Source: Somniosus microcephalus
Lineage: Eukaryota
Direction of reading: 5' to 3'
Length of the DNA: 64,000 nt
Assembly (NCBI GenBank): GCA_052327205.1
Contig: JBMRGM010000042.1
Coordinates: 25,482,001 to 25,546,000, forward strand
The notes under the pieces were generated by a model, which saw only the letters and a program-made list of their open reading frames with translations, had not been told where the DNA came from and searched no databases. Below, piece after piece: positions 1 through 61,834 of this stretch (position 1 is its first letter; each line of letters opens with the position of its first letter). The translations under genes and the position numbers were made by a program.

Positions 1-1202
1 TTATTGCTCCCTAATCTAATTTAAGTTCTTATATCCAGCCCCGACCTAACAAATTTGGTCGAGAACCCGATACGACAACTACAGGTAGCTGTTCCACGGT
101 GTCCCTGTGTTTCGCAGTTATAATAGCTGTACCCAAGGTTGTCACTCATTCACCGGTATAGGTTTTAAGCTTCATAGAGCAAGACTTTAACTCTGGAACT
201 TTTGCACGGTTCCACAATTTTGAATATTCTTCCCTGTTCATTATGGTAACACCACATCCAGTATCCACCTCAAATTTGACCTTAGTGTCATTTACTATCA
301 GTTGCAAAGTGATAGCATCCACTTTAGGAGTGTTCTCTACCAAACTATGCATTATGAACACGTCGTCTTCTTCCTCAGCTTCTCCACTGATGTGATGTTC
401 TCCCTGTTTTTTTCACTTCTCTTCCACGGTTTTGCTTTTCTTCCCCTTTAGGTTTGTATACCTCCAGGGTAGCTTTAGCTCTGCATGCACTTTTTATATG
501 TCCTTTTTCTTCCACACGTGTGGCACTTTTCCTCCAGAAACCTGCATTCCCTTGCCAGGTGATCTCCATTGCATCTATAACATTCTTTTAAATGCGCACG
601 TTGTAGTGTACGACTCATATTTAACTTGTGCACCAGCGTCTGACCTGCAACTTGCTTTGTAGTAGACCAGTCGCAACCTTGTATTTCTTTTACATCTCGG
701 TTCACTGTCTCTATTAATTGAGCAAGTTCCAACGCTTTTTCATACGTAAGCCCAGTCTCGGACAATAATTTCCTCTGCATTCGAGCATCCATTATCCCGC
801 AAACCAGCCTATCTCTCAGCATGTCTTTCAAGCTGTTCCCGTAATTGCAATCATGTGCCAGTTTTCTCAACACCGCTACATAATACAACGCAGACTCTCC
901 CGGTATCCTATTCTGTGAATTAAATTTGAAACGCTGTGCAATCTCACTCGGTCTGGGATTGAAATGTTCCTTTAGCAAGTCCACTAATTCAGTAAATGAT
1001 TTATCTCCAGGCTTTAAAGGACTGCATAAGTTTCTCAGTAACTATATGTCAGAGTTCCCACCGAAGTTAGCAAAATAGCTCTCCTTTTTCCAACATCGAC
1101 AATATCATTTGCTACAAAGAAATGCTCCAATAACTCACAGTACTCTATCCAAGTTTGATTTTGAACATCAAAAGCAAAAATCTCTCCAACTCGAGTAGCC
1201 AT
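1..1202 (-). pseudogene. Gypsy gag-protease, frameshifted
   Basis: ATG at 1202 (MATRVGEIFAFD...); frameshifts near 1045 and 510; ORF track 475..984, 375..569, 146..361. Confidence 0.85.
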
Positions 1203-7493: not shown

Positions 7494-9801
7494 CTACTTT
7501 TTGCCCTTCGAGTGTGATCTGCTTTGCTTGCGAGATTCAACCCTTACCACCCTGCAACTCCTCCGCAATGGGACCCCAGTGGCTGCAGCAAGGCTGGGGG
7601 AAGGCTGCTGAGTGTCAGAAGCTGAGACTGCAGATGCCCTTGAGTGATGGCCTGGACAAGCTCTGGGCCTGGAGGGCCCGGCTGCTGACTGCTCCAACTC
7701 TGCATGGGCGTCAGCAGTCTGTCCTACAGGTGGAGGCAGCTGCAGTGGGTAAGTGACAGTGTTGGCAGCAGGAATGCTGCCATCCTGACAGAGGACAGCA
7801 ATTCCCTGGTTGGACGACACACTGGCACTCCCACGGGGCAGTACTGCAGCATGCAGAGCAATCTGTTGAAGCACAGACTGCTGGCCTGCTGTGGCACGGC
7901 GAGGGCCCCGGCGATTCGTGCCCGATCCAGTGAGGGTGGCAGCAGTCAGTGCTCGTGTGGCCTCAATTTGCGTCTGCATCAGACCAGCCACTGACTGCAT
8001 TACGCCGTTAAGCACTTGTGTAGAAGCCGCCTGTGCTGCGCCAAAGTCCTGGAGACTCCTTACCTGTGCTGCGCCGAAGTCCTGCAGACTCCTTGCCAGT
8101 GCTGCGCTGAAGTCCTGGACACTCCTTGCCAGTCACTCAATGGATTCAGGCATCCTTGCAACTGCAACCATGAGCTCAGTATGCCTGTGCTCCGCCTGGG
8201 CACTCATTTCAACGAGGAGCCGCACCTCTTCTGCGCTCACTGTAGCAGGACTCAAGGCCAGACTCTCCCTCTGGGGAGAAGGCCGCTGAGCTTCTCTACC
8301 CTTCCCGCATTGCTGCAGCCTGCTGGGCCCCGGAGCTTCACCCTCCTCAGACCATTCCCCCTGCTCCCCTCCAGGGAAGACGTGTCCCCATTATGGCCAT
8401 GGGCTGCCTCGGCTGAGGGTGGCACTGATGGTCTGGCTTCCTCTTCCTCCTTGCCTTCATAATCCCTCACAGTGGCAGCTTTAAGGCTCGCCTTCTCACC
8501 TGGTGAATCAGCATCTGAAAGCAGGGTGGTACAAGAGTGGCTTTAGCTTGAGGACAGGGTGGCAGCGAGGGAGGCATGAGTGCTGCAATGCACTGTATTG
8601 GTTCGATAGTGGCAAAGCATGCTGGTGTGAGGCACAAGTGGAAGGAGAGAGGTCAAAAAGGTGATGACCTGACCATTGCTGTACAGAACGGGGTCGGCAT
8701 CTTCAGTGGCGATGAGGCCAATCATTCGGCCTGCCATAATGCACTGGACTCACTGCTCCAGATCGGTGAGGGCTTGAAGGTGAGGCCGGCCTCCCTGGTC
8801 CATTGCTGCTGCCTCCTGTTATGGGCAAGCTGCCCTGATGTTCACTGCACTGCCTCCCATGGTCGAATAGCCTTTACAGTGTGAAGCCCTGATCTTCGCT
8901 GCACAGCCTCACATGGTGGAATAGCCCTTACAGTGTGAAGCCCTGACGTTGGCTGCACTGCCTCCCATGGTCGAGTAGCCCTTACAGTGTGAAGCCCTGA
9001 TCTTGGCTGCACTGCCTCCCATGGTCGAATAGCCTTTACAGTGTGAAGCCCTGATCATGGCGGAACTGCCTCACATGGTGGAATAGCCCTTACAGTGTGA
9101 AGCCCTGATCTTGGCTGCACTGCCTCCCATGGTCGAATACCCCTTACAGTGTGAAGCCCTGATCTTGGCTGCACTGCCTCCCATGGTCGAATAGCCCTTA
9201 CAGTGAGAAACCCTGATCTTGGCAGCACTACCTCCCATGGTCGAATAGCCGTTACAGTGTGAAGCCCTGATCTTGGCTGCACTGCCTCCCATGGCCGAAT
9301 AGCCCTTACAGTGTGAAGCCTGATCTTGGCTGCACTGCCTCCCACGGTAGAATAGCCCTTACAGTGTGAAGCCCTGATCTTGCCTGCACTGCCTCCCATA
9401 GTGGAATAGCCCTTAAACTGTGTAAAGTGCTGAATGCGCGTGTGAGTTTTAGGAAATGCCCATAGGTGTTGGATGAGGGCTGGGCATTGGGGCTTTCAGG
9501 ACACTTTGGCCATAAAGTGAGGTGGACATGCAGGGATGAAGAGGATGCTGGAAAGGGTACTCATCCCGACGACCCGAGTGAGGTCACTGAACTTCTTACT
9601 GCATTGCACAATGGTCCTAGGCACCATGCTGCTGGAGGTCACTCTGTGAGCCACCTCCCTCCAAGCCTTGCGATAGTCGTTGGGCAGCGGCCTCCTGCCA
9701 CTGTCCGGGAACAGGATAGATCACCTGCGCTCCACCGCACCAACCAGAACCTGCAGGGCCCCCTCACTGAACCGCTGCGCTCGCTCCCTGGCCCTCTCCA
9801 T
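7494..9801 (-). pseudogene. Harbinger Myb/SANT-like DNA-binding gene, 3 predicted exons (about 9801-9565, 8833-8675, 8514-7494)
   Basis: Exon 1 reads MERARERAQRFSEGALQVLVGAVERR*SILFP...AWREVAHRV...RTIVQCSKKFSDLTRVV; exon 2 QLAHNRRQQQ; exon 3 follows a tttcag acceptor; in-frame stop at 9721 and a mutated donor (ATGAGT). Confidence 0.8.
8845..9420. repeat. 54-bp minisatellite, about 10.5 copies, in intron 1 of the Myb-like gene
   Basis: Unit CTTACAGTGTGAAGCCCTGATCTTGGCTGCACTGCCTCCCATGGTCGAATAGCC; period 54 (8875, 8929); 18-aa repeats in the ORF track. Confidence 0.97.
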
Positions 9802-33543: not shown

Positions 33544-34426
33544 TGTAAGAAAGGCTGATATTGAAATATATTTAGTAGACGAGAATCAAATATGTATGAC
33601 TTCAAGTGTAGCCACTGACAAAGTAATATTACCCATAATTACTCCTGAGTAACTGAAAAAGCTAAGACTTGTTCAAAATGTATCTGCACGGTCAAAAGCA
33701 GTTTTGACTAAGTTTTGATAACAAACAACCACAGACCTCGAGTGAAGGTTAAATAACATATTACGATGCTGTGTAGAAATTGGAATTAGCTTAACAAAAG
33801 TAATTGCAACGATGTTTAAAAAATAATTAATTTAAGGACATAAAATGAGAGAGATCATGGAGGTAAGGTATTTATCTTGTCGATTAAAGTGAGATAGTTT
33901 GGATACATCAAGACTAGTGAATGTGCCCTTGGTATAGAAAGGCCTTGTACTGCTTGAAGCTAGAAATGAAAGAGATAAAAGTTAATTCGAATGGGGTAAT
34001 AAACAATAAACAAGATAAAACTGAACATGGCAAAGTTGGTGAAAAAATACTGGAAAGCAGGATACTTCCTTAGTCTGAGTGACAATGCTATTTTGACCAT
34101 TAGAACCAATTAAAAAAGGTGATTTTGTTAAAGACCATATATGGACACCGGCCAAACAAACTTTTGATAAGAAAAAGGTTATAACCTCGGTATTAAAGAA
34201 CAACTTCACACAGATCTACTGCGAGGACAAAGGAACAGATTTAACACGACGTCTTCTGTGTCCGAGAGGTTCCAGAGACCTAGGGCTGGAGCTATTCCTT
34301 AAAACTATCACCTAATATTAAATATATTACGCTGTATGCTTAATACATCTTGATGTATTACTCAAACATACTGGCTGCTGCCTATTGGTGTTTGCCCAAG
34401 TACACAGAGTTCATTAAGATCTTACA
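33544..34426 (+). repeat. 3' LTR of the ERV-like element
   Basis: Perfect 7-bp terminal inverted repeat TGTAAGA...TCTTACA; colinear with 29038-29919. Confidence 0.85.
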
Positions 34427-37400
34427 TTATGGATTTTCATTATTAAATGCCACCGTTAAAGAAGAGAGCTCCATCCCGGAGTGCAGTATAGCAGTCGTGA
34501 GAGGACACTCTAACATTTGTAATTTAATTACTGAATGAACAAAGTTAAAGAGGACAGCCCCATCCCAGAGTTCATCAGAACCGCACTGAGTAGCCAATCT
34601 ATCATTTGGAATTTAATTACTGCGTGGTCACAGTTAAAGTGTACAGCCCCATCCCAGAGTGCAGTAGAGCAGTCGTGAGAGGACACTCAAACATTTGTAA
34701 TCTAATTACTGAATGGTCACTATTAATGAGGAGAACCACATCCCTGAGAGCAGCAGAACAGCACTGAAAAGGCACTCTAACATTTGGAATTTAATTACTG
34801 AATGGTCAGAGTTAATTATGACAGCCATATCCCAGAATGCAGTAGAGAAACCCGGAGAGGGCTTGCAACAGTTGGAATTGAATTACTGAATGCCCACTGT
34901 TCAAGAGGACACCCTCTCCCAGAGTGCAGTAGAGCAGCCTAGAGATGGCATTGCAACAATTGGAATTTAATTAACGAATAGCTATATTTATAGGAGACAG
35001 CGCCATTCTAGAGTCCAGCAGAGCAGCCCAGAGAGGGCATTGCAACAATTGGAATTTAATTATTGAATGGCCATGATTAAAGGAGACAGCGCCATTCTAG
35101 AGTCCAATAGAGAAGCCCAGAGAGGGAATTGCAACAATTGGAATTTAATTACTAATGGCCATGTTTAAAGGAGACAGCACCATTCTAGAGTCCAGTAGAG
35201 CAGCCCAGAGAGGGCATTGCAACAATTGGAATTTAATTACGAAATGGCCATGTTTAAAGGAGAGAGCGACATTCAAGAGTCCAGTAGAGCAGCCTAGAGA
35301 GGGCCCCCTAACAAATGTAATTAATTTACTGAATGAACACAGTTAAAGCGGGCTGCCACATCCCAGAGAGCAGCGGAACAGCACTGAGAAGGCAATCTAA
35401 CATTTGGTCTTTAATTTATGAATGGTCACAGAAGAAGAGGGCAGCCATATCCCAGAGTATAGTAGAAAAGCCCTGAAAGGTCTTTGTAACATTTGGAATT
35501 TAATTACTGAGTGACTACAGTTAAATAGGAGAGCTCCATCCCAGAGAGCAGGAGAGCAGCCCTGAGGGGACATTCTAACACTTGGAATTTAATTAATAAA
35601 TGGACACAGTTAAAGAGGACAGCCACATCACAGAGTGCAGTAGAGCGGTCCTGAAGGGTCATTGTAACACTTGGAATTTAATTAATAAATGGACACAGTT
35701 AAAGAGGACAACCACATCCCAGAGTGCAGTAGAGTGGTCCTGAGGGGACATTGTAACAAATGGAACTTAATTACTGAATGGTCACATTTAAAGAAGACAT
35801 TCCCATCCCAGAGAGCAGTAGAAAAGCCCTGAGCAGACACTCTAAGATTTGGAATTGTATTACTGAATACACACAGTAAAGAGGAGAGCCCAATCCCAGA
35901 GTGCAGTAGAGCAGAATTGAGAGGACATTCTGACATTTGGAATGTACTTGCTGAATGGCCACAGTTAAAGAGAACAGCCCCATCCCACAGTGCAGTGGAG
36001 AAATCCTGAAAAAGTCATTTAACATTTGGAATTTAATTACTGACTGTTCACATTTAAACTGGAGAGCCCCATCCAAGAAAGCAGTAGAGCAGTTATGAGA
36101 GGACACTCTAACATTAGGAATTTAATTATTGAATGACTACAGTTAAGTAGGAGAGTTCCATTCCGTAGAGCAGAAGAGCATCCATGAGAATGCACTCTAA
36201 CATTTGGAATTTAATTACTGAATTGCCACAGTTAAAAAGGAGAGCTCCATCCCAAAGTGCACTAGACCAGTAGTGAGAGGATATTCTAACATTTGGAATT
36301 TTATTTCTAAATGGCCACAGTTCAATAGGAAATCCCCAACCCGGAGTGAATTAGCGCTGTCTTGCGAGGGCACTCTGACAATTACAGTTTAATTACTGAA
36401 TGGCCACAGTTAAAGAGGACAGTCACATTCCAGAGTGTGGAAGTGCCACCGTGAGTAGGCACTCTAACTTTTGGAATTTAATTAATAAATGCACACATTT
36501 AAAGAGGGCAGCCACATCCCAGAGTGCAGTGGAGCGGGCCCAAGAGGAGATGCGAACATTTGGAATTTAAATAATAAATGGCCACAGTTAAGGAGGGCAG
36601 CCCCATCCAAGTGTTCGGTAGAGCAGCTGTGAGTGGACATTCTAACATTTGGTATTTAATAAAGAAATGGAAACAGTTAAAGAGGACAGCCATATCCCAG
36701 AGTGCAGTAGAGCAATCCTGAGAGAACATTCGAACATTTGGAATTTAATTACGGAATGGCCACAGTTAAAGAGGACAGCCCTATCCAAGAGTGCAGTACA
36801 GCAGTCCTGAGAGGTCATTCTAAAACTTGGCATTTAAATAATGAATGGCCGCAGTTAAACAGGACAGCTCCATCCCAGAGTCCAGGAGAGCAGCCTGGAG
36901 AGGTCACAAAAGCATTTGCAATTAAATTACTGAATGGCCACAGCTAAAGAGGACAGCCAGACCCCAGATTGCATTAGAGCATCCCTGAGTAGACATTATA
37001 ACATTCGGAGTTTTATTACTGAATGTTCACAACTAAAGAGGAGAGACCCATCCCAGAGTGCAGTAGAATAGTCTTGAGAGGACAACCTAGCATTTGGAAA
37101 GTACTTACTGAATGGCTTCAATTGAAGAGAGCGGCCCCAACTTAGAATACAGAAGAGCAGCCCTGACAGGGCATTCTAATATTTGGAAATGTATTACTGA
37201 ATGTTCACAGCTAAGGAGGACAATCGCATCCCAGAGTACAACAGGGCAGCCCTGAAAGGGCATTCTAACATTTGGAAAATGTATTACTGAATGTTCACAG
37301 TTAAAGAGGACAATTCCATCCCAGAGTACAGCAGAACAGTCCTGAGCAGACACTCTAACATGTGGAATTTAATTACTGAATGTTCACAGTTGAAGTGGAG

Positions 37401-38055
37401 AGCCCCATCCAAGAGAGCAGTAGAGCAGTTGTGATAGGACACTATAACAATCGGAATTTAATTATTGAATGGCCAAAATTAACGAGGACATCCCCATCCC
37501 AGAGAGCAGTAGAGCAGTCATGAGAGGATAATCTAACATTTGGAATTTAATTACTAAATGGCCACATTTCAAAAGGAAATCCCAACCCAGTGTGGGCTAG
37601 AGCATTCTTGGGAGAACACCCTGAAATTTACAATTTAATTACTGAATGGCCAGAGTTAAAAATGACAGTCACATCCCAGTGTGAATTAGAGCAGCACTGA
37701 GATGGCAATCTAATATTTGGAATTTAATTACTGAATGGCCGCTGTTAAAGAGGACAGTCCCATCCAAGAGAGCATTAGAGCAGTCGTGAAAGGGCATTCT
37801 AACATTTGGAAATTGATTAATGAATTTTCACAGTAAAAGAGGAGAGCCCCATCCCAGAGTGCAGTAGAGCGGTCCTGAGAGGACACACTATCATTAGGAA
37901 AGTGCTAACTGAATGGCCACATTTAATGAGAAGAGTCCCACCCCAGAGTGCTGTAGAGAATCCCTGAGCGGTCATTGTAACATTTGGAATTTAATTACTG
38001 AATGTTCACAGTTAAGGAGGACATTCCCTTTCCAGAGTGCAGCAGAGCAGTCAAG
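34427..38055. repeat. 89-bp satellite, about 40 diverged copies
   Basis: Consensus CATTTGGAATTTAATTACTGAATGGCCACAGTTAAAGAGGACAGCCCCATCCCAGAGTGCAGTAGAGCAGTCCTGAGAGGACACTCTAA; period 89 (34514, 34603, 34692). Confidence 0.97.
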
Positions 38056-41680: not shown

Positions 41681-41898
41681 CCTGGCCATTTGCAGAGCGG
41701 GGGCTGAATGAGAGAGGCAACGGTGATAAAAGGAGCGTGGAGTGAAGGCCCGAGACTAGAGGAGGTAGCGGACCTGGTCGTGACAAGAGCGGGAGCAGAG
41801 CGAGAAAGGCAGCAACTCAAAAGAGGCAGAATTCCAAAGAGTGACGTCACAGTAGAAAAAGTGACATCGGCGCAAGGGAAGGAGCTGATTGGAGTGGC

Positions 41899-42376
41899 GA
41901 CCCGAGGTCCGAGATCACAGCGGGAGCGGGACCGGATCTGAGACGGGGATAAAAGGAGTAGCGACCCGAGGCCCGAGATCACAGTGGGAGTGGGTCCGGA
42001 GCTGAGATGGGGAAAAAAGGAGCGGTGACCCGAGGCCCGAGATCACAGTGGGAGCAGGACCGGAGCTGAGACGGGGACAAAAGGAGCAGTGACCCGAGGC
42101 CCGAGTTCAGAGTGGGAGAGGGACCGGAGCTGAGACGGGGATAAAAGGAGCGGCGACCTGAGGCCAGAGATCACAGTGGGAGTGGGTCCGGAGCTGAGAT
42201 GGGGAAAAAAGGAGCGGTGACCCGAGGCCCGAGATCACAGTGGGAGCAGGACCGGAGCTGAGACGGGGACAAAAGGAGCAGTGACCCGAGGCCCGAGTTC
42301 AGAGTAGGAGAGGGACCGGAGCTGAGACGGGGATAAAAGGAGCGGCGACCTGAGGCCAGAGATCACAGTGGGAGCG
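41899..42376. repeat. 64-bp tandem repeat (about 7.5 copies) with a 192-bp higher-order period
   Basis: GACCCGAG at 41963, 42027, 42091; variant GACCTGAGGCCAGAG recurs at 42155 and 42347. Confidence 0.95.
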
Positions 42377-43186
42377 AACCAACAAGAGGCACAAAGTCGG
42401 TGAGCGATTCAACACGGGAATGACGTCAGAAATCAAAAGTGTCGCTGGCAATACTCCAGTTGTGGCCTAACCAACGCTTTACAAAGATTCAGCATATCTC
42501 TGCTTTCATACACAGTACACTCTCTCAAATTGTCATGCCACCTTCAGGGAAATATGCACATTAACTCCAAGGTCACTCTGTCCCTGCACACTCTTTAACA
42601 CTGTGTCATTAATTGTGCATTGCCTCTCCTTGTTCCTCCTGCCAAAATGCAGCACCTCACACTTCCCTGTATTAAATTTCATCCTCCATCCATCTCCGGT
42701 GCAACTGCTCTGACGATGCCACGTTCCATACCAGTGCTTCTGACATGCCTTCCTTTTTCCTCAACCGAGGATTACCCTCTACTGCGGCAGACACGGCCCT
42801 TGACAGTGCCCGTTCAATCTCCCACACTTCTGCCCTCACTCCTGCCCCTCCCTCCCGGTCCCACGACAGTGTTCCCCTTGTCCTCACCTTTCACCCCCAC
42901 CAGAGACAACATTCAACGGATCATCCTCCGTCATTTCCGCCAACTAAAACGTGATCCCACAACCAAACACATCTTCTCCTCACTTCCCCTTTCAGCGTTC
43001 CGAAGTGACCGCTCACTCCGCAAAACCTTGGTCCACTCCTCTACCACCCACAACAGCCCTTCCCCTTCGCTCAGCACCTTCCTGTACAAGCGCAGGAAAT
43101 GCAACACATGCCCTTATACCTCCCCCTTCCCACTATCCAGGGCCCCAAACACCCCTACCAGGTGAAACAGCGATTTACATGTACCA

Positions 43187-50280: not shown

Positions 50281-52559
50281 CCTGTTTCTCTCTTCACAGA
50301 TGCTGCCTGACCTGCTGAGTATCGCCAGCATTTTCTGTTTTTTTCAGATTTCCAGCATCTGCAGTATTTATATCATCTTCACTATTTGCCACATTTGGTG
50401 TCACCGGCATATTTAGAAATTATACTCTTAATTCCAATATCCAGGTCATGTGTATATATATATCAAGGAATGCAGTGGCCCCAGCAGTGATCCATGTGGA
50501 ACATCACTGACTACCATCCTCCCGTCTGAAAAACAATCATTTAACACAACTTGCTGTTTTCTGTCCAAAAGGCAATTCCTTATCCAAGCTGCCATGAACG
50601 TCAATATTGTTAACCATGTAGACAACATCCATTGCATTCCCTACATCAATCCTCCCTGTTACTTCATCAAAAAATTGAATTAGATTAGTCAAACACGATC
50701 TGCCTTTTACAAATCCGTGTTAGATCACCTTAATTAGCTTAAACCTCTCCAAGTGCCCATTAATATTTTCCTTGATGATTGTTTCTAAAACTTTACCCAC
50801 CACCAATATTAAACGAACCGGCCTGTAGTTACTCGGTTTATCCTCACACCCTTTATTGTACAATGGTGCCACATTTGACATTTTCCAATATTCCAATATC
50901 CGCATTTAGGGATGATTGGAACATTATGGCAAGCCCTTCCACTATCTCCTTCCCCAATTCCATAAGCAACAACAGACACAAGCCATCTGTACCAGGTGAC
51001 GTATGCACTCAATGCATACCCAGCCTTTCTAGTACATGCTTTCTATCAATTTTCACCCCTTCCATTGCTTCTAACTTTTACACTTCTACCGATATTTTGT
51101 CAGCATTCACCTCCTTAGTAAACACGGATATAAATTAGTCATTGAGTACTCTAGCCTTGCCCCGCGGCTCAAAGCATATATCACCTACTTTGTGTCTAAT
51201 AGGCAGCCACCCCGCCTCTTTCTACCTGCTTACTGTTAACATGCTTGTAGAAGAGTTTTGGTTTCCCTTTTATGTTAACCGTCATTCTACTCTCATATGC
51301 ACTCTTTCCCAAACTTATTTTCATCTTTACATCTTCTCTCAACGTATTCTGTTTGGTCTAGTTCTGCCTTGACGAATACAGCTGACATGCATCATACACC
51401 CCCATTTTAGTTTAACCATCTGCTCTATCTCCCTCGTCATCCAAGGAGCACCTGCTTTGTTTCCCTTACACTTCCCTCTTGTTGGAATGTATATAGCCTG
51501 TAATTGGAAAATCTTCTCCTTAAAGATCACCCATTGTTCCGTTACAGATTTTCCAATAAGTCTTTGGTTCCTTTTACCTTGGCTAGATCCTTTCTCATCC
51601 CATTGAATATAGCCCTATTCTAATTTCAAAGTTCGACTCCAGATTGTTCCTTGCTCCTCTCCATTGCTAATCTAAATCTTATGATATGATGATCACGCAT
51701 AACTAAGTGTTCTCCCACTGAAACCTGATCGACCTGGCTCACCTCTTTCCCCAGCACTGGATCCAGCAATGCCTGCTTGCTAGTTCGGCCAAGAACATAT
51801 TGTTCAAGGAAATTCTCCTGAACACATTCAAGAATTTCCTCACCCTCCTTTTGCGTTATCCTAGCAATAATCCCAATCGATATTTGGGTAATTAAAATCC
51901 CCCAACATCAACATTTTTTAGCTATTGCATATCTCTGGGATTTTCCTGCGGTTTTCTCCTCTTCCTCCTTCACACTATTTGGAGACCTATAGATTTCCCC
52001 CAGTAGCTTTATCATACCCTTTTTGCTCCTCAAATCTTTCCAAATGTATTCTGCCCTTGTCACCTCCAGAACATCATCTATTTCCAACACTACAATATTT
52101 TCCATAATCAGCACTGCCACCCCATCTACCACTTTGTCTTCCCTATTTTTTTGAGCAACTTGTACCCTTGAATATTAAGGCCCAGTCCTCACCGTTTCTA
52201 AAGCACGTGTCCGTAATTGCCACAATATCGTATTGCCACACGGCTAATTGTGCGTGCAGCTCACCAATCTTATTCACCACAGTTTAACTAGATGCATTCT
52301 AAGCCCATTTTTGAATTTTTCGTAGTGTTTCCTAGTCTGCTCCTATCAAATATGGTACTACTGATGCCTCTAGTTCTATCTTCCCTAGTACTATCCAACA
52401 CACAAACTCGTTTATGCACCTTATTCCTCTTTTCCACTCCTGTATGCTGATGCACACACCCCTGCTAAGCTAGTTTAAACCCTCTCGAAAAGAACTAACA
52501 AACATCCCCACGAGAACTTTTGTCCCGGCTCTGTTGAGGTGTAACCCGCCCAGCTTGTA

Positions 52560-53025
52560 CTTGCAAGCAGTGAAGATGATACCAATCGACTACAGCAGGA
52601 CATGGAGAGGCGAGCAGAATGCACGGAGAAGTGGCAGATGGAATTTAATACAGAGAAGTGTGAGGTGATTCTTTTTGGCAGAATTAACAGGGAGAAGCAA
52701 TATACACTTAATGGCACAACTGTAAAGAGCGCGCAGGGACTCAGGGACCTAGGATTTAATGTGCATATATCCCTGAATGTGGCAGGACATATTGAGAGAT
52801 TGGATAACAAAGCATATGGGATCTTGGGCTTCAACTCGCTGGCGACAGAAGTGGTGGAAGTGGAGACACTCAAAGTTTTCAAGGGGCTACCGGATAGGTA
52901 CTTGAGAGAACTAACTTGCAAGGCTACAATGATAAAGCGGTGAAATCGGATTGACTGGGTTGCTCTATAGAGAGCCGGCTAGGACTCGATGGTCCCAGTG
53001 CACTCCTACTGTGCCGTTTTGACTT
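52560..53025 (+). mobile_element. Internally deleted CR1 3' fragment
   Basis: KWQMEFNTEKCEVILFGR in ORF 52602..52943 followed by a CR1 tail. Confidence 0.8.
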
Positions 53026-53619
53026 TATGACTAGGTCCCACCTTCCCCAGAATGTCCCACTGCCTCCGGAATATAAAGTCCTCCCTTCTGCACCATCTAT
53101 CCAGCCACACATTCATCTGTTCTACCCTCCATTTCCTGATCTCACTAGCACGTGGAACTGGGGGTAATCCAGAGATTACTGCCTTTGAGCTCTTGCATTT
53201 TAATCTCACTTCTAGCTCCCTAAACTCTCCCTGAAGGTTCCCCTCCGTCTTACTGCCTATGTCGTTGGTACCGATATTGTGAACGAGCTGTGGCTGTTCA
53301 CCCTCCTCTCTCAGAGTGTCCTGCAGCCGCTCAGTGTTTGTGTGACGTGCATTTCGGTTTACTTTTTTATTTCAGGATATCAACTCGAAGCTTAATTTTT
53401 AATTCAGATTTTTATGTAATCTGCTTTATAGAAATTATTGATTGCAATGTTGGAATGCATTTTTCCCTTGCAAAGCTCAGTGATTTCAAATAAATGATTC
53501 GATCCATTTAAAGCTCAACATCGAATCTTACATGCAACAGACGCAAAGCTCTGCAAACCTCTGCTTCAATGGGGTCTTGATTCCCAGGGGTGGGCAGTAA
53601 TGCCCGGTCTGATGAGGCA

Positions 53620-55030
53620 TTCACTGCTTTCTGCTGAGAGCACGTGATTGCAGAGAGCGGGGTGGGACAGGCAGCCTGACTTTTGTTACTTCTCGCAAGC
53701 TCACTCACTCCGGCAGCAGGTGATTGGAGAGAGCAGGGCGCGTCAGGCGAACTGAAACTTGCTGCGTGTGGGCACCTCACTCATGCTGGCAGCAGGTGAT
53801 TGGAGAGAACGGGGTGGGACAGGCGGCAGCAAAGTAGCTGCTTGTCCCCGCCTCACTCACTCCGGCATCGGGTGATTGGTGAGAGCGGGGCGGTACAGGC
53901 GGCATGAATGTTGCTACTTGTCCCCGCCTCACTCACTCCAGCAGCGGGTGATTGGAGAGAGCCGGACGGAACAGGTGGCCTGAATGTTGCTGCTTGTCCC
54001 CGCCTCACTCACTCCAGCAGCGGGTGATTAGAGAGAGAGGGGCGGGACATGTGGCCTGAATGTTGATGCTTGTCCCCGCCTCACTCACTCTGGCAGCGGG
54101 TGATTAGAGAGAGCGGGGCGGGACATGTGGCCTGAATGTTGCTGCTTGTCCCTTTCTCACTCACTCCGGCAGTGGGTGATTGGAGAGAGCGGGGCGGGAC
54201 ATGTGGCCTGAATGTTGCTGCTAGTCCCTGCCTCACTCACTCCGGCAGCGGGTGATTGGAGAGAGTGGGGCGGGACAGGGGGCCTGAATGTTGCTGCTTG
54301 TCCCCGCCTCACTCACTCCGGCAGTGGGTGATTGGAGAGAGCAGGGCGGGACAAGTGGCCTGAATGTTGCTGCTTGTCCCCGCCTTACTCACTTCAGCAG
54401 TGGGTGATTAGAGAGAGTGGTGCAGGACAAGTGGTCTGAATGTTGCTGCTTGTCCCCGCCTCACTCACTTCGGCAGTGGGTGATTAGAGAGTGCGGGTTG
54501 GGACAAGTGGCCTTAATGTTGCTGTTTGTCACCGCCACACTCACTTCAGCAGTGGGTGATTGGAGAGAGCGGGGCGGGGCGTGTGGCCTGAATGTTGCTA
54601 CTTGTCAGCGCCTCACTCACTTCAGCAGTGGGTGATTAGAGAGAGCGGGGCGGGCCAGACAGCCTGAATGTTGCTGCTTGTCACCGCCTCACTCACTTCA
54701 GCAGTGGGTGATTAGAGAGAGTGCGGCAGGCCAGACGACCTGACTGTTGCTGCTTGTCCCCACCTCACTCACTCCAGCAGTGGGTGAGTAGAGAGTGCGG
54801 GGCGGGACAAGTGGCTTGAATGTTGCTGCTTGTCACCGCCTCACTCACTCCGGCAGCGGGTAATTGGAGAGAGCGGGGTGGGACAGACGGCCTGAATGTT
54901 GTTGCTTTTCACCGCCTCACTCACTTTGGCAGTGGGTGATTAGAGAGCGGGGGCGGCACAGGCCTGAATGTTGCTGCTTGTCACCGTCTCACTCACCCCA
55001 GCAGTGGTTTACTGGCGAGAGCAGGGCGGG
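53620..55030. repeat. 76-bp GC-rich tandem repeat, about 18 copies
   Basis: Unit CTCACTCACTCCGGCAGCGGGTGATTGGAGAGAGCGGGGCGGGACAGGTGGCCTGAATGTTGCTGCTTGTCCCCGC; period 76 (53928, 54004, 54080). Confidence 0.97.
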
Positions 55031-55496
55031 AGAGGCAGCCTACCTGTCAGGATCACCACTACCTAATCCAGCCACTGCCGGAGGGGATCTGCTGGTCCCA
55101 GCAGAAAGCCCATAGTTACAAGTGAGCCTTTCAGCCGCTCCAGCCTGTTCCACCATTAAATGAGGTCAGGCTGACCTCTATCTTAATCTATCGAACTACC
55201 TTGTCTCAACATCCTTTTACACCCTTGCCTAGCAACAATCCATCAGTCTGCGATATAAAATTATGATCTGAGCTGGAATTGATAACTTTTAGTGGCATAC
55301 AGTTCCACTCTTCTTCCAGGCATAGCGTGAAGAATTGTTTCCTAACTTATCTTCAGAATGGCCTTCCTCTGATTTGAGCACATAAAAGGGAATTGCATTT
55401 ATATCACGCCTTTCATTAACACCCACTGTCCCAATGCGCTTTAAGGCAATGAAATGCTTTCTGAAGTGTAGTCACTGGTGTAATGCAGGAAAGTTG

Positions 55497-55764
55497 TGTG
55501 ATAAAAATAATAACTTCCGGGAAGTTATGTCATCACTTCCTGTGAACTGTGAACTGTGAACTATTAACTATGAACTGTGTACATACCTCACTTCCTGTCA
55601 TGTGTCACTTCCTGTTGGACTGGTATAAATACTGGTCTGTTCAGTATTGTAAGAGGCTTCTACCAGAGGCATGGTAAAGACCTCTCTTGTATATAGTGTG
55701 TTTATAAGTTACTTAAAGCTTACTTTAAAGTTACTTGATGGTAAGCCTCCTTTTTCTTACATCA
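55497..55764 (+). repeat. 5' LTR
   Basis: TGTGATAAAA...CTTACATCA; TATAAAT near 55624. Confidence 0.97.
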
Positions 55765-55846
55765 ATTTAAGTAACTTAGTATTTACACTCACGAATACTG
55801 GACCTTCGGACAAACTCGGAATTAAGGATCCAGGGAACCACCCATC

Positions 55847-58800
55847 ATGGAGAAAATCCTTAGACCTATTCGTCTGGACTTGGACCCGAATGCACCAGCA
55901 GCTGGCAGGGTATGGAAGCATTGGTACCGTACTTTTGAGAATTTTCTGGATGAATGTGAAGCGGATGCTCCTGCTAGATTGAAGATACTTATCAATTATG
56001 TGACCCCAAAAGTGTTCGAATATGTTGATGAATGGGATAATTACGATGAGGTGATTCGGGCACTTAAGAAACTGTATGCCAAGACCCCAAATGAGGTCTA
56101 TGCTAGACATCTACTGGCCACAGCCCGACAAGGGCCAGGGGAATCAATTGACGAATTCCTGCAAGAACTTCGCAGGCTCAGCGTAGATTGTAACTTTCAG
56201 GCAGCCTCAGCTGAGCTGTACCGCCAAGAAATCATTCGTGATGCTTTCATCTGCGGGATTGCCTCTCCATTTATACGCCAGCGTCTACTAGAAAGTAAAA
56301 CACTTGAGCTACAAAAAGCTTTTGACCTAGCTTGTTCACTGGATTTGGCAAAGAGAAATGCAGACCTCTATCAGCTGCCCAGATCTCGATCTGCTGCTGT
56401 AGCTGCAACCAGACAATTCAAGCGGTCTCAGGTGAACCCTATCATGGGGGAATCTAATTCTGATAATTCAGATGAAGAAGAGGAGGACGACCCCACTTTA
56501 GCAGCCTCTTGGCAATCTAGGAAGGAATGCTTCTTTTGTGGAGATGCTTTCACCCTAGGAAAACCTGCCCTGCTCGCAATGCAATCTGCAGTTATTGCAG
56601 GAAAAAAGGACACTTTGCTAAAGTTTGCCTATCAAGGGCCTCTACGAGGGCCAATCCAGCTAAGGCCTACCGAACTGCCCCAATTAGGGCCTATCAAGAT
56701 GCTCCAGCTAGGACCTATCAAGCTTCCTCTCGAGCTCTCTCCCGAAGAAGCACACCGAGAGTTTTAGCCACTCTCTGTGCAACGACACCAATTACAGCTG
56801 CTTGCCCACAGAACCTGTCTCATGCTGCCACAAAAATTTCAATTAAAGGGCATACCTTAGATGCCTTAATTGACTCAGGAAGTACTGATAGTTTCATTAA
56901 GGAACAGATTGTTGCGAAATTGAAACTACATGTCTTCCCATCGGACCAGGCAATTGCGATGGCCCAGTCATCACTTAATACCAGAATCTCCGGCTTTTGT
57001 GTTGTTGATATGACACTTCATGGTCGTATGTATCCCTCCACCCGACTTTCGGTGCTCAAGGACTTATGTAGTGATCTCCTCTTAGGACTGGACTTCCAAA
57101 AACAGCATAAGAAACTCACCATTGAGTTTGGTGGATCCAAACCCGGACTTACTATTTCTAATATACCGTCTAAATTACCATTTTGTGCATTATCAGCAGC
57201 TTCACTTGATGAACCCTCATTATTTGCCAGTATTCCGCCTCAATGCCAACCGATAATAACGAAATCGCGGCGCTTTAATCAGGAAGACCAATCTTTTATT
57301 GCGGCTGAAATCTCTCGACTTCTAGCAGAGGATATCATTGAACCATGTTCGTCGCCCTGGCGGGCTCAAGTCGTCATTGTCAAGAACCCTCTAAAACCTC
57401 ACAAACAGCAGCTATGCATCGATTATTCGCAAACCATCAATCAATATACCGACTTGGACGCCTAACCATTGCCACGCATTGATGATATGGTTAATAAACT
57501 GGCCGAATACAAAGTGTTCTCAACTTACGATTTAAAAAGTGCCTATCATCAGTTACCCTTGAAGGTCTCAGATAAGCAGTACACAGCCTTTGAGGCTAAT
57601 GGACGGCTGTACCAATTTCGTCGCCTCCCATTCGGAGTTACTAATGGAGTGGCTGTCTTTCAACGGGCAATGGATGGCCTGGTTAAGCAGGAAAACCTAA
57701 GGGACACTTTTCCCTATCTTGATAACATTACCATTGCAGGTCACGATCAACAGGAACACGACTCCAACCTCCAAAAATTTCGGGATGCCCTCCATCGCCG
57801 TAATTTGACCCTGAATGAATCCAAATCTGTTGAGTCGCAACCGACCATCAACATCCTTGGCTACTGCGTAGGCAATGGTATCATTAAGCCAGACCCAGAA
57901 AGACTTCGCCCGCTCCAAGAGCTCCCGTCACCTAAGAATCCGGCTTCTTTACGTCGGGCTCTCGGTCTGTTTGCATACTACGCTAAATGGATTCCTCAGT
58001 TTTCGGACAAAATCCAACCCTTGCTGCATGCTAGATCATTTCCACTGGGAACAGCGGCTGTTGCAGCCTTTAACCTTCTCAAAAAACAGTTGGAGAAAGC
58101 GGCTCTTCACTCCATTGATGAGAATCTCCCTTTCGTGGTTGAATGTGATGCCTCGGAGGTGGCGATCTCGGCTACGCTGAATCAGGAAGGTCGTCCTGTA
58201 GCATTTATGTCCAGGACCTTACAAGGTGCCCAGCTACATTATCCTCCGGTTGAGAAAGAAGCCACAGCCATCATAGAGGCAGTACGGAAGTGGAACCATT
58301 TTCTAGCTCGCCAGCACTTTACATTGATCACGGACCAACGATCAGTCGCCTTCATGCTCGATAATCGAAAACGAACCAAAATTAAGAATAATAAAATACA
58401 ACTTTGGAGGATGGAACTGGCCTCTTTTGGTGATACCATTCTCGATCGGCCTGGCAAGGAGAATGTGGCCCCGGACACCCTCACACGGGCATTCTGCTCC
58501 ACTATGTCATCCTCCACCCTCATGGATTTCCACAATGGTTTGTGCCATCCTGGCGTTACGCGCATGCTACATTTCGTACGATCACGGAATCTCCCTTTTT
58601 CCACTGGAGATGTAAAGAAAATATGCTCAGAATGCCGGCTTTGTGCGGAATTAAAACCTCAGTTATTCCGCCCCTCAGATGGTATACTCATACATGCAAC
58701 CCAACCGATGCAACGACTTAGCATCGATTTTAAGGGCCCAGTGCCCTCTTCAACTCGGAACACATATTTGCTCGCCATGATCGACGAATATTCACGTTTT

Positions 58801-59400
58801 CCGTTTGCCTTCCCCTGCTCCAATATGCTGGCGTCCACAGTAATCTGCTGCCTTGAGCAGGTATTTTCTCTCTGTGGCATGCCGGCTTATATTCACTCAG
58901 ATCGGGGTCCATCCTTTATGTCGAGGGAACTCAAGGACTACCTCTCAGAACGGGGAATTGCTACAAGCAAAACAACACCATACCATCCCATCGGAAATGG
59001 GGAGATAGAGAGGTATAACGGTATCATCTGGAATTCTGCACGTCTCGCTTTAAGATCTCGGGGCCTACCAGACCAGCAATGGGAAACAGTGCTTCCGGAT
59101 GCATTGCACTCTATACGGTCCCTGCTTTCTACAGCCACAAATACAACACCTCATGAGCGGTTCTTTGGATTCCAGCGTCGCTCATCTCATGGGACATCAC
59201 TCCCGTCATGGCTAACTACTCCTGGACTTGTATTACTCTGAAGATACGTTCGGACGTCTAAAAATGACCCTCTTGTAGACGAGGTCGAACTAACCGATGC
59301 CAACCCCACCTATGCAAACATACGATATTCCGACGGCCGAGAATCTACGTATCATTACGGGATCTGGCTCCCTGCCCACCAGGACCTAGTGGGACATCGG
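55847..59400 (+). pseudogene. Gypsy gag-pol polyprotein with few lesions
   Basis: Gag MEKILRPIRLDLDP, two CCHC knuckles (frameshift near 56545), protease LIDSGS, RT YDLKSAYHQ, LPFGVTNG, YLDN, RNase H VECDAS, integrase H-H-C-C and D,D,E (SIDFKG, HSDRG, GEIER); stops at 57463 and 59239. Confidence 0.95.
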
Positions 59401-59804
59401 GTGATGGCATTTCACCAGGAAACTCTTGGGACCTATCGGGTACCCCTCTCCAGGATCCTGATCGGACACCAACTAGCTTGGTGCTGGTAGAACACGGTGC
59501 TCAAGGTTGCGACCCTCCCAGTACCACGCATGAAAGTACTGGTCTGCCACAGACCAGCTCTGCACCTCCCTCTGAACAGAGGCAGTCTGACTTTGAACCT
59601 ATTGGGGCTCGTACTCGAAGCCATGATCTCCCCGACCCTTCACAGGGCAATCCAGGCCACACGGACTCTGGCCAATGGCCAACCGCATGTAAGCGGACCA
59701 GCGACCCTCTACGGCGGGAATCCAAACGGGTGCGACTCTTCCTTGTTCGGCGGCTGCGGACCAAAAGGTAGACCACAGCCTCCTAAACCTGCAGGAGGGA
59801 AGAA

Positions 59805-60072
59805 TGTGATAAAAATAATAACTTCCGGGAAGTTATGTCATCACTTCCTGTGAACTGTGAACTGTGAACTATGAACTATGAACTGTGTACATAACTCACT
59901 TCCTGCCATGTGTCACTTCCTGTTGGACTGGTATAAATACTGGTCTGTTCAGTATTGTAAGAGGCTTCTACCAGAGGCATGGTAAAGACCTCTCTTGTAT
60001 ATAGTGTGTTTATAAGTTACTTAAAGCTTACTTTAAAGTTACTTGATGGTAAGCCTCCTTTTTCTTACATCA
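59805..60072 (+). repeat. 3' LTR
   Basis: Direct repeat of 55497-55764, preceded by the polypurine tract. Confidence 0.97.
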
Positions 60073-60264
60073 AGTTGCACACAGCAAGATCCCACGAACA
60101 GCAATATGCTAATGATCAAAAGATATGTTTAGTGAATTCCATTCAGATATAAACATTGGCCGCAGGACCTGAGAGATAACCCCCCTGTTCTTCGAAATAC
60201 CGCCATTGAATCATGTCCACCTGAGACGGGCCCTTGGTTTAAAGTCTTATCCGAAACATGGCTC

Positions 60265-61155
60265 ATCCGACAGTGCAGTGCTCCTTCATTACTGCAACGA
60301 TGACAGTGCAGCACTCCCTCAGAACTAACTATCCGACAGTGTAGAATTCCTTCAGTGCTGCCCCTCCGGCAGTGCGGCACTCCCTCAGTACTGCTCTTCC
60401 AACAGTGCAGCAGTCCCTCAGTACTGCCCCTCCGACAATGCAACGTTCCCTCAGTACTGCACTCCCTCAGTACTGCCCCCCGCGACAGTGCAGCACTCCT
60501 TCATTCCTGACCCTCCGACAGTGCAGCGCTCCCTCAGTACTTCCCCTCCGACTTTGCAGCCCCTCCTCAGTACTGCCCATCTGACAGTGCAGCACTCCTT
60601 CAGTACTGACCCTCCGACAGTGCAGCATACCCTCAGTACTGACCATCCGACAGTGCGGCGTTCACTCAGTGCTCCCCCTCCGATAGTGCAGCCCTCCCTC
60701 AGTGCAGCCACTCCGACGGTTCAGCACTCCCTCAGTACTTCCCCTCCGATGGTGGAGCACTCCTTCAGTACTGCCTATCCGACACTGCAGCCCCTCCAAC
60801 AGTGCAGCACTCCCTCAATACTGCCCCTCCGACAGTGGAGTGCTTCCTTATTACAGCCCCTCTGACAGAGCAGTGCTCGCTCTGTACTGCCCCTCCGACT
60901 GTGCAGCACCCCATCAGCACTGCCCCTCCAACAATGTAGCGCCCCCTCAGTACAGCCCCTCTGATAGTGCTGCACTCCCTCAATACTGCCCCTCCGACAG
61001 TGCAGCGCCCCATCAGTACTGCCCCTCTGACAGTGTAGCGCCCCCTCTGTACTGCCTCTGTGACATTGTAGTGCCACCTCATTACAGCCCCACCGACAGT
61101 GCAGTGCTCCCACACTACTGCCCCTCCAACAGTGCAGCGCTCCCTCAGTACTGCA
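60265..61155. repeat. 33-bp minisatellite derived from the SINE body, about 27 copies
   Basis: Unit GACAGTGCAGCACTCCCTCAGTACTGCCCCTCC; 11-aa periodic spurious ORFs. Confidence 0.95.
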
Positions 61156-61834
61156 GTGGAATGTCAGCCTAGATTTACTACTCAAGTCTCCCGGAGTGGG
61201 ACTCGAATGCCAAATTTTCTGATTTAGATGTGAGAGTGCTACCCACTGAGGCAAAGCTGACACACTTGAACCTATGGGAAGAGATTAGGCACATTCCTAT
61301 GAGGGGGAAAATATTTGCACCAAAGTTCTACATCTCACTGCATGAATGCATATATCGTCTCTTCGGGGGCTGAGGGCTGGAATACCACCGCTGGCCAGAA
61401 ATTGTGCTCCTGCTTATTTCGGGCTCTTCACCTGAAGCCATTCTAAGCATTGCAGTGGGCAGCATTTTTGTGGTCAGGGTGGGAATGCCGTAGCTGTTGT
61501 CTGGAGCAGTGATTGTATAGTGTTTCATAATCTGCCTTGTGGTCGCAGCAGCTCTTGTTAGATTCCGAATTTATTTATTGAACCCTCTGCTGCACATGCT
61601 AATAGGCAGCAGCAAGAAATCAGTATCTACTCTATATTTGTCATGACAGTGAAATCAGATTTACTGCCTTTACATCCCAAAAACACTCACAGGCTCCTAC
61701 ACTAAAAGCCGCCTCCTCAGCCAGCTTTTTATTCCTTCCAGAATTATTAGATTTCCTTTACTTCCGTGCTTCTGCTCCAGAGACACTTCCCTGCGGCCTT
61801 GCCTACACTTAAATTCAATTTCACCTCCTACACC

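Follow-up and report, generated by a model that had tools for sequence, protein, structure and literature searches.

The window analyzed here, a 64,000-nt stretch of the Somniosus microcephalus genome, contains on its plus strand a complete 4.6-kb Ty3/Gypsy LTR element (55497-60072), with TG...CA LTRs, a target site duplication (TSD), a polypurine tract (59793-59804) and the domain order protease (PR), reverse transcriptase (RT), RNase H (RH) and integrase (IN). The 5' LTR (55497-55764) and the 3' LTR (59805-60072) are 268 bp each and differ by three mismatches, and an identical 5-bp TSD, AGTTG, flanks the element on both sides (55492-55496 and 60073-60077). An earlier note on this DNA had placed the 5' LTR's end at 55764 on the basis of the 3' LTR and the TSD, and we found the same ends in 30 of the 30 top matches, the window copy among them. 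The coding region (55847-59770; gag-PR-RT-RH-IN, with a YLDN motif in RT) is broken in the window copy by two frameshifts and one stop, and other copies of the family carry gag, PR, RT (YLDN), RH and IN in a single open frame of ~1310 codons. The family is abundant, with ~3000 such LTR junctions (2534 + 470) in the 6.4-Gb genome.

The element is inserted in an abundant transcribed repeat (55440-55496 and 60073-60120), and many RNA reads match its left flank and then diverge from the LTR. The window also holds minisatellite arrays at 34349-38045, 53563-55007, 60163-61255, 8778-9374 and 41814-42438 (units of 89, 76, 33, 54 and 64 bp, respectively) and, at 52475-53371, decayed LINE-like coding fragments on both strands, which we take from their motifs to be CR1-like.

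As the earlier note had observed, the 5' LTR is followed not by TGG but by a complement of its own sequence: after a single A comes TTTAAGTAACTTA (55766-55778), which is exactly complementary to LTR positions 55705-55717 (hereafter, the arm). A 13-bp match arose in none of 3000 dinucleotide shuffles of the LTR, and one of 12 bp in 1 of 3000. The helix between arm and binding site is predicted with a pairing probability of 0.62-1.0 per pair, and it closes a 47-nt R/U5 loop (55718-55764) that would serve as the template for minus strong-stop DNA. Two further pairings in the earlier note fared less well. The AGTGT/ACACT extension (55695-55699 with 55785-55789) is present and predicted to pair, but we rejected it as a conserved extension, because one subfamily reads AGTTT while keeping ACACT unchanged; the proposed inner hairpin is present at a probability of ~0.5 but competes with a hairpin of 55718-55723 with 55741-55746 (0.47). 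The note had also read a decayed tRNA-Tyr-like site at 55799-55821 as a possible relic. We rejected this candidate: the TGG in the window copy is a rare, sporadic substitution scattered over subfamilies (TAG in 64 of 66 family junctions, TGG in 23 of ~3000 genomic copies), and the LTR ends 34 nt upstream of it.

The two sides of the helix change together. Position 55711 in the arm covaries with 55772 in the binding site: the pair is A:T in 2534 copies, and 470 copies have G in the arm, with C opposite in 99 of 100 among the matches listed. Among the matches listed for binding sites other than T, 2 of 100 were A:C. Both arm/site variants are also present in RNA reads. The covariation between post-LTR sequence and LTR segment that the earlier note had proposed to look for was thus seen within the window family, and it was seen across the clade described below as well.

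A protein search returned 1166 matches, of which the best 120 (54-92% identity) include sequences from Nematostella, Xenia, Hydra, Palaemon, Caligus, Clavelina, Trichuris, Scyliorhinus and Hypanus; a motif scan of these 120 found YLDN in 78 and YLDD in 9. A clade of YLDN-type Gypsy elements without a chromodomain occurs in sharks and many invertebrates. We sampled 141 loci (the window, 80 metagenome loci and 60 from the same genome) and found an LTR pair in 71 and none in 70, the LTR end being set by the second LTR and hence independently of any pairing. The clade accounts for 54 of the 71, of which 6 are mis-called or truncated (L038, L059, L084, L126, L129, L140) and 48 valid. A TGG primer site was present in none of the 54, and 42 of the 48 valid loci pair with their own LTR over at least 11 nt, in 41 of these 42 beginning 1 nt past the LTR. 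Self-pairing is also kept in the YLDD-type clade members L111 and L114, and P0007 is another YLDD example.

To these loci correspond 23 distinct junction types, with four single copies that carry mismatches left out. The duplex with the own LTR has a median of 13 and reaches at least 11 bp in 20 of 23 types (6-8 nt in the other 3), compared with a median of 6, and at least 11 bp in 6 of 506, when sites and LTRs are swapped across families. Across the clade the site lies 1-2 nt past the LTR and forms 11-17 nt of pairs with a partner 34-79 nt upstream of the LTR end. The arm ends in a run of A and contains AATAAA or ATTAAA in 20 of 23 types; in the window copy it lies at the poly(A)-signal position and is non-canonical. 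More than ten different binding sites occur in one genome, each matching its own LTR, and because the gag ATG can follow within 16-25 nt downstream, there is no room for another primer site. A further helix starts directly after the arm in 15 of 20 types, compared with 5.5 expected. As to a three-duplex structure around the site, the hairpin at the U5 end has a probability of ~0.5, and loop stability z falls under -1 in 9 of 20 types. Sister families have a TATA box 83-85 nt upstream of the arm end; invertebrate families lack one, and several of them have YYAGTT, presumably an initiator-like motif, at the arm start. In the ordinary subfamily L218, L226 and L227, the binding site has grown from ~14 to 18 nt, with the match reaching further into the LTR.

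Control elements came from the same genome, under group labels (chromovirus, Mag-type, DUF7041, PNMA) that we assigned from Pfam hits and presumed diagnostic features rather than from named references. Among the chromovirus copies, 8 of 10 have an 11-bp self duplex starting 30 nt past a TATA-like box, the position expected for Tf1-type priming, and lying 148-154 nt upstream of the LTR end, in contrast to the 34-79 nt of the clade. This chromovirus family (L151-L160) has a 1452-codon frame alongside its 11-bp self-priming signature. Mag-type elements have a TGG site in 7 of 7 cases and lack a self duplex, and the DUF7041-gag and PNMA-gag elements likewise have TGG sites and no self duplex. One TGG-primed Gypsy copy (L167) recurs about every 100 kb on the small contigs C57, C188 and C236, as if in a large tandem unit. 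Among viral contigs, 7 pattern matches were found, none of them a relative.

In RT-RH and RT-RH-IN trees (LG+G4), whose chromoviruses and Mag types are copies from the same genome rather than named references, the clade is monophyletic (100/100) on a long stem and lies outside the sampled chromovirus, Mag-type, DUF7041 and PNMA groups; the PNMA-gag rows are absent from the RT-RH-IN tree, and 23 rows were omitted from the RT-RH tree for speed or redundancy. A search for a SCAN-domain outgroup gave no match, and one for Integrase_p58_C gave 3 matches, which were unused. The best trees unite the chromoviruses with the tRNA-primed DUF7041 group (98/97 for RT-RH, 85/75 with IN), and the clade, which the earlier note had described as Mag-like, joins the TGG-primed Mag-type group, without falling inside it, at only 81/61 and 85/75. 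Grouping the clade with the chromoviruses is not rejected in these long-stemmed trees (AU p = 0.09 and 0.27). Consistent with the earlier note, Pfam scans found no chromodomain in the window copy or in L136, L116 and L035, and the window copy and L136, an unbroken copy of the family, also lack a Tf2-type SH3 domain; SH3_Tf2-1 was found in the control chromovirus L151, along with Chromo at E = 7e-5, under the cut-off. By these tests the clade is not a member of Tf1/sushi. Covariation, the missing tRNA site, the by-products described below, the lack of a chromodomain and the separate clade strongly support, at the level of sequence, self-priming outside the Tf1/sushi chromoviruses. The earlier note's proposal of a self-priming lineage outside that group thus held as to placement; its suggestion of independent origin is possible at most, because a sister relation with the chromoviruses is not rejected.

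We used integrated by-products of reverse transcription as a record of the primer. A search for LTR ends followed by LTR complement extending past the normal site gave 10 + 5 = 15 matches in the window family. Nine of the 15 are snap-back solo LTRs (TSDs: seven perfect 5-bp, one mismatched, one unclear) that read, in LTR direction, the arm, a T, the first 5-27 minus-strand bases and the remaining U5. Such a structure is expected when minus strong-stop DNA has folded back on itself and synthesis has proceeded over its own start and on into the attached primer. The strong-stop part ends opposite 55717 (plus or minus 1) in 7 of the 9, with four different joins. Because of this, the template likely began opposite 55717, so that cleavage of the RNA likely took place at the paired arm's 3' end, at 55716/55717, leaving a putative 2-nt spacer (55765-55766) between the LTR end and the primer 3' end; the base complementary to 55717 is included in the snap-back junctions. 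The distance from the purine tract core to the 3' LTR is likewise 2 nt. In L174 the arm is deleted from both LTRs (the deletion ends at 55718) yet a 26-nt primer copy is present, and in L172 the minus-strand part stops at 55705, the 5' edge of the arm. At four loci a full LTR is followed, in inverted orientation, by the element's 3' end, starting at the arm and running across U3 and the purine tract as far as pol; such products would require either an additional template jump or priming by the RNA 3' end, and one of the four (L213) is rearranged. None of the 15 window-family by-products ends at the predicted transcription start, and RNA-seq (raw reads X8 and X9; the organism with ~70% of the sampled words), which covered the family on both strands, gave no usable signal for transcript start, cut or poly(A) site.

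The start was instead marked in a sister family (59% pol identity, TATA box 84 nt upstream of the arm end) with 372 by-product matches, of which we examined 90, on contigs C1-C4, among the matches listed. From these we scored 59 de-duplicated copies shorter than 120 nt that had their own LTR, using a pattern blind to copies under 18 nt. Seventeen ended at TATA+31..35 (mode +32) and 35 at +36..67, while of the other seven 2 lay within the 35 nt immediately upstream of the peak and 5 farther out (binomial p = 3e-4 for the peak and 1e-9 for the cliff). The ends at TATA+31..35 lie 50-54 nt from the arm end and coincide with the predicted transcription start, a start 30-31 nt past the TATA box being the textbook spacing. 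Among the copies ending at the start, 14 of 17 continue with a C, compared with 10 of 25 elsewhere (p = 0.011); this excess fits copying of the cap, in a modest test in which most of the C's match the acceptor too. Alternatively, a template jump that left a completed binding site for the 5' terminus of the second packaged RNA could have produced the copies ending at the start. In a second sister family with 18 matches, the end falls at +30/31 in 3 of the 15 copies that could be scored; three of the matches are ordinary elements with an 18-nt binding site. A sister family lacking a TATA box shows scattered ends (18-82 nt) and many copies of the whole U3 (30 of 48 matches examined). Many of the 372 consist of one LTR whose primer copy has jumped to the U5 end, with a CA terminus restored ahead of the host DNA (e.g., L252, L254, L263, L339, L345 and L350). 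By-products are far commoner in this sister family (372, in an uncounted total of copies) than in the window family (15 versus ~3000 junctions).

Since the snap-backs place the cut at the 3' end of the arm and the sister copies stop at TATA+31..35, the primer is likely a capped 50-65-nt fragment from the 5' end of the RNA, in the window family by homology. Its length would be 50-54 nt for the sister family and, for the window family, in which it would run from 55654 to 55716, about 60-63 nt. We consider it probable that the element, which has no tRNA site and a binding site that pairs with its own LTR, is primed in this way, by a capped fragment released from the 5' end of its own transcript. 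Transcription would begin ~30 nt past the TATA box, to judge from the by-products, and folding of the RNA would bring the poly(A)-signal segment into pairing with the primer-binding site. A cut would then be made at the 3' end of this segment (55716/55717 in the window copy), by analogy with Tf1 through the element's own RNase H, and the capped 50-65-nt fragment, held by its last 11-15 nt, would be extended over the 47-nt loop. The resulting short minus strong-stop DNA would jump to the 3' LTR, and during plus-strand synthesis the end of the primer would be copied back into the binding site, which would account for the joint changes on the two sides. The pairing may additionally hide the poly(A) signal of the 5' LTR, a plausible if speculative second function.

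It is unlikely that the window family is instead exactly Tf1-like, with a start at the arm (about 55705-55707) and a primer of just 11-13 nt. The stop of L172 at 55705 would suit such a start, as would the invertebrate families without TATA box, several with YYAGTT at the arm start, and no window-family by-product maps an upstream start. However, the TATA box lies 81 nt upstream of the arm, at 55624-55630 and 94 nt upstream of the arm's 3' end, and there is no TATA-like box 30 nt upstream of the arm; 26 nt were copied in L174, and sister families of the same layout end at TATA+31..35. The earlier note had raised the upstream TATA as a caveat, and this turned out to be the main difference from Tf1, in that the whole 5' RNA piece likely primes, not just the paired 11-13 nt. 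We regard as quite unlikely a primer formed by the 3' end of the genomic RNA, in which the 3' LTR's copy of the arm, once rid of its tail, would anneal to the binding site. Four window-family and several sister by-products do extend from the arm across U3 and the purine tract as far as pol, for up to >1500 nt, but these are also explained by a jump across the 50-65 nt common to the 3' LTR, and such a primer predicts neither the cliff at the predicted start (17 ends versus 2) nor a fixed minus strong-stop end at the arm.

The pairing might also serve solely to hide the poly(A) signal of the 5' LTR while another RNA primes. AATAAA or ATTAAA does lie in the arm of 20 of 23 types, and the partner strand is present only behind the 5' LTR. 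Masking as the sole function is nevertheless very unlikely: a primer must bind next to the LTR end, and the sequence there varies between families and has its sole match in the LTR, the window arm pairs perfectly yet lacks a canonical signal, and the by-products join the arm to the first minus-strand bases. Priming by an RNA of the host (a tRNA, a piece of one or another small RNA), whether at the LTR edge or at 55799, is scarcely credible. It could draw on the TGG at 55799 of the window copy, but this triplet is the exception noted above, the LTR end is fixed 34 nt upstream, and both the many binding sites in one genome, each matching its own LTR, and the covariation contradict it.

The probable priming by a capped 5' fragment of the element's own RNA bears on how often LTR elements gave up tRNA primers, and on a possible escape from tRNA-fragment control. 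Annotation tools that demand a tRNA site will misread such elements. With nothing but a genome assembly, the by-products allow the transcription start and the cut site to be mapped, and they give exact predictions for CAGE and primer sequencing. We advance tentatively the fuller combination: an origin independent of Tf1/sushi, a capped 50-65-nt fragment cut at the element's own poly(A) signal, and one helix acting as both primer source and silencer of the 5' poly(A) signal, in a widespread animal clade (sharks, cnidarians, crustaceans, tunicates and nematodes) whose integrated by-products, numbering in the hundreds, would map start, cut and cap to the base.

Among described elements, the Cigr-1 elements resemble the clade: they have an LTR of ~245 bp and a single frame of ~1210 codons without chromodomain and whose clade also occurs in molluscs. 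On these features (short LTR, one frame, no chromodomain), our clade may be identical with the Cigr-1 clade. The accessible part of one source names the Cigr-1 clade, in Ciona, and does not mention priming there (PMC6238403). Saci2 and lennie of flatworms, as far as the accessible portions of their reports go, share a Gag-Pol fusion and variable primer-binding sites but have 4-bp TSDs and tRNA-type sites, in contrast to the 5-bp TSDs and missing TGG of the clade (PMC12471100, PMC4558846). The elements L161-L170 of the same genome share short LTRs, a single frame and a 5-bp TSD with the clade but differ in a tRNA-type TGG site, the lack of a self duplex, 30-32% pol identity and placement in a separate clade (100/100). 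We presume L161-L170 to be Mag-type from their features. Our literature search found no paper on self-priming in the clade; Repbase reports, GyDB, Simmen and Bird 2000 and Butler 2001 lay outside it and may mention it. It also found no mapping of a capped primer in Gypsy elements. Self-primed Gypsy families are reportedly noted in Repbase for a diatom.

In the literature, as far as the accessible portions go, self-primed reverse transcription is shown for Tf1, taken as a mark of the Tf1/sushi chromoviruses and predicted for one copia lineage. Predictions from LTR complementarity concern Tcn1 (a plant clade) and the copia elements TAR/Houba; Tcn1 belongs to a chromovirus clade related to Tf1/sushi and TAR to copia, neither being the window clade, and the accessible part of the source maps no primer length for either (PMC6317226). 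Tf1 and Tf2 of S. pombe, Tj1, Tosmo and the Tf1/sushi chromoviruses, according to the portions of the sources at hand, likewise lack a tRNA site and carry a site complementary to their own 5' LTR (PMC7175516, PMC10085805, PMC4600332). In Tf1 the primer is the RNA's initial 11 bases, cut by RNase H (PMC7175516), and the Tf1/sushi group is described as having a three-duplex structure and a chromodomain (PMC10085805); these statements, too, follow the accessible parts of the sources. In that group, cleavage of the RNA falls at the paired segment's 3' end, as it would in our clade. In contrast to Tf1/sushi, the clade lacks a chromodomain or SH3 domain, has an RT that is mostly YLDN and shares 25-30% pol identity with chromoviruses of its own genome, and its arm is situated at the poly(A) signal, ~50 nt into the RNA, with a likely primer of 50-65 nt versus 11. 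An 11-nt primer is not what the by-products indicate, which in the sister family end 50-54 nt from the arm end and extend to the window family by homology. Taken together, an abundant animal clade outside the chromoviruses carries the signature of self-priming in another geometry, with a long, likely capped primer ending at the poly(A) signal: a feature of the whole clade that operates as Tf1 self-priming does, with the primer arranged differently.
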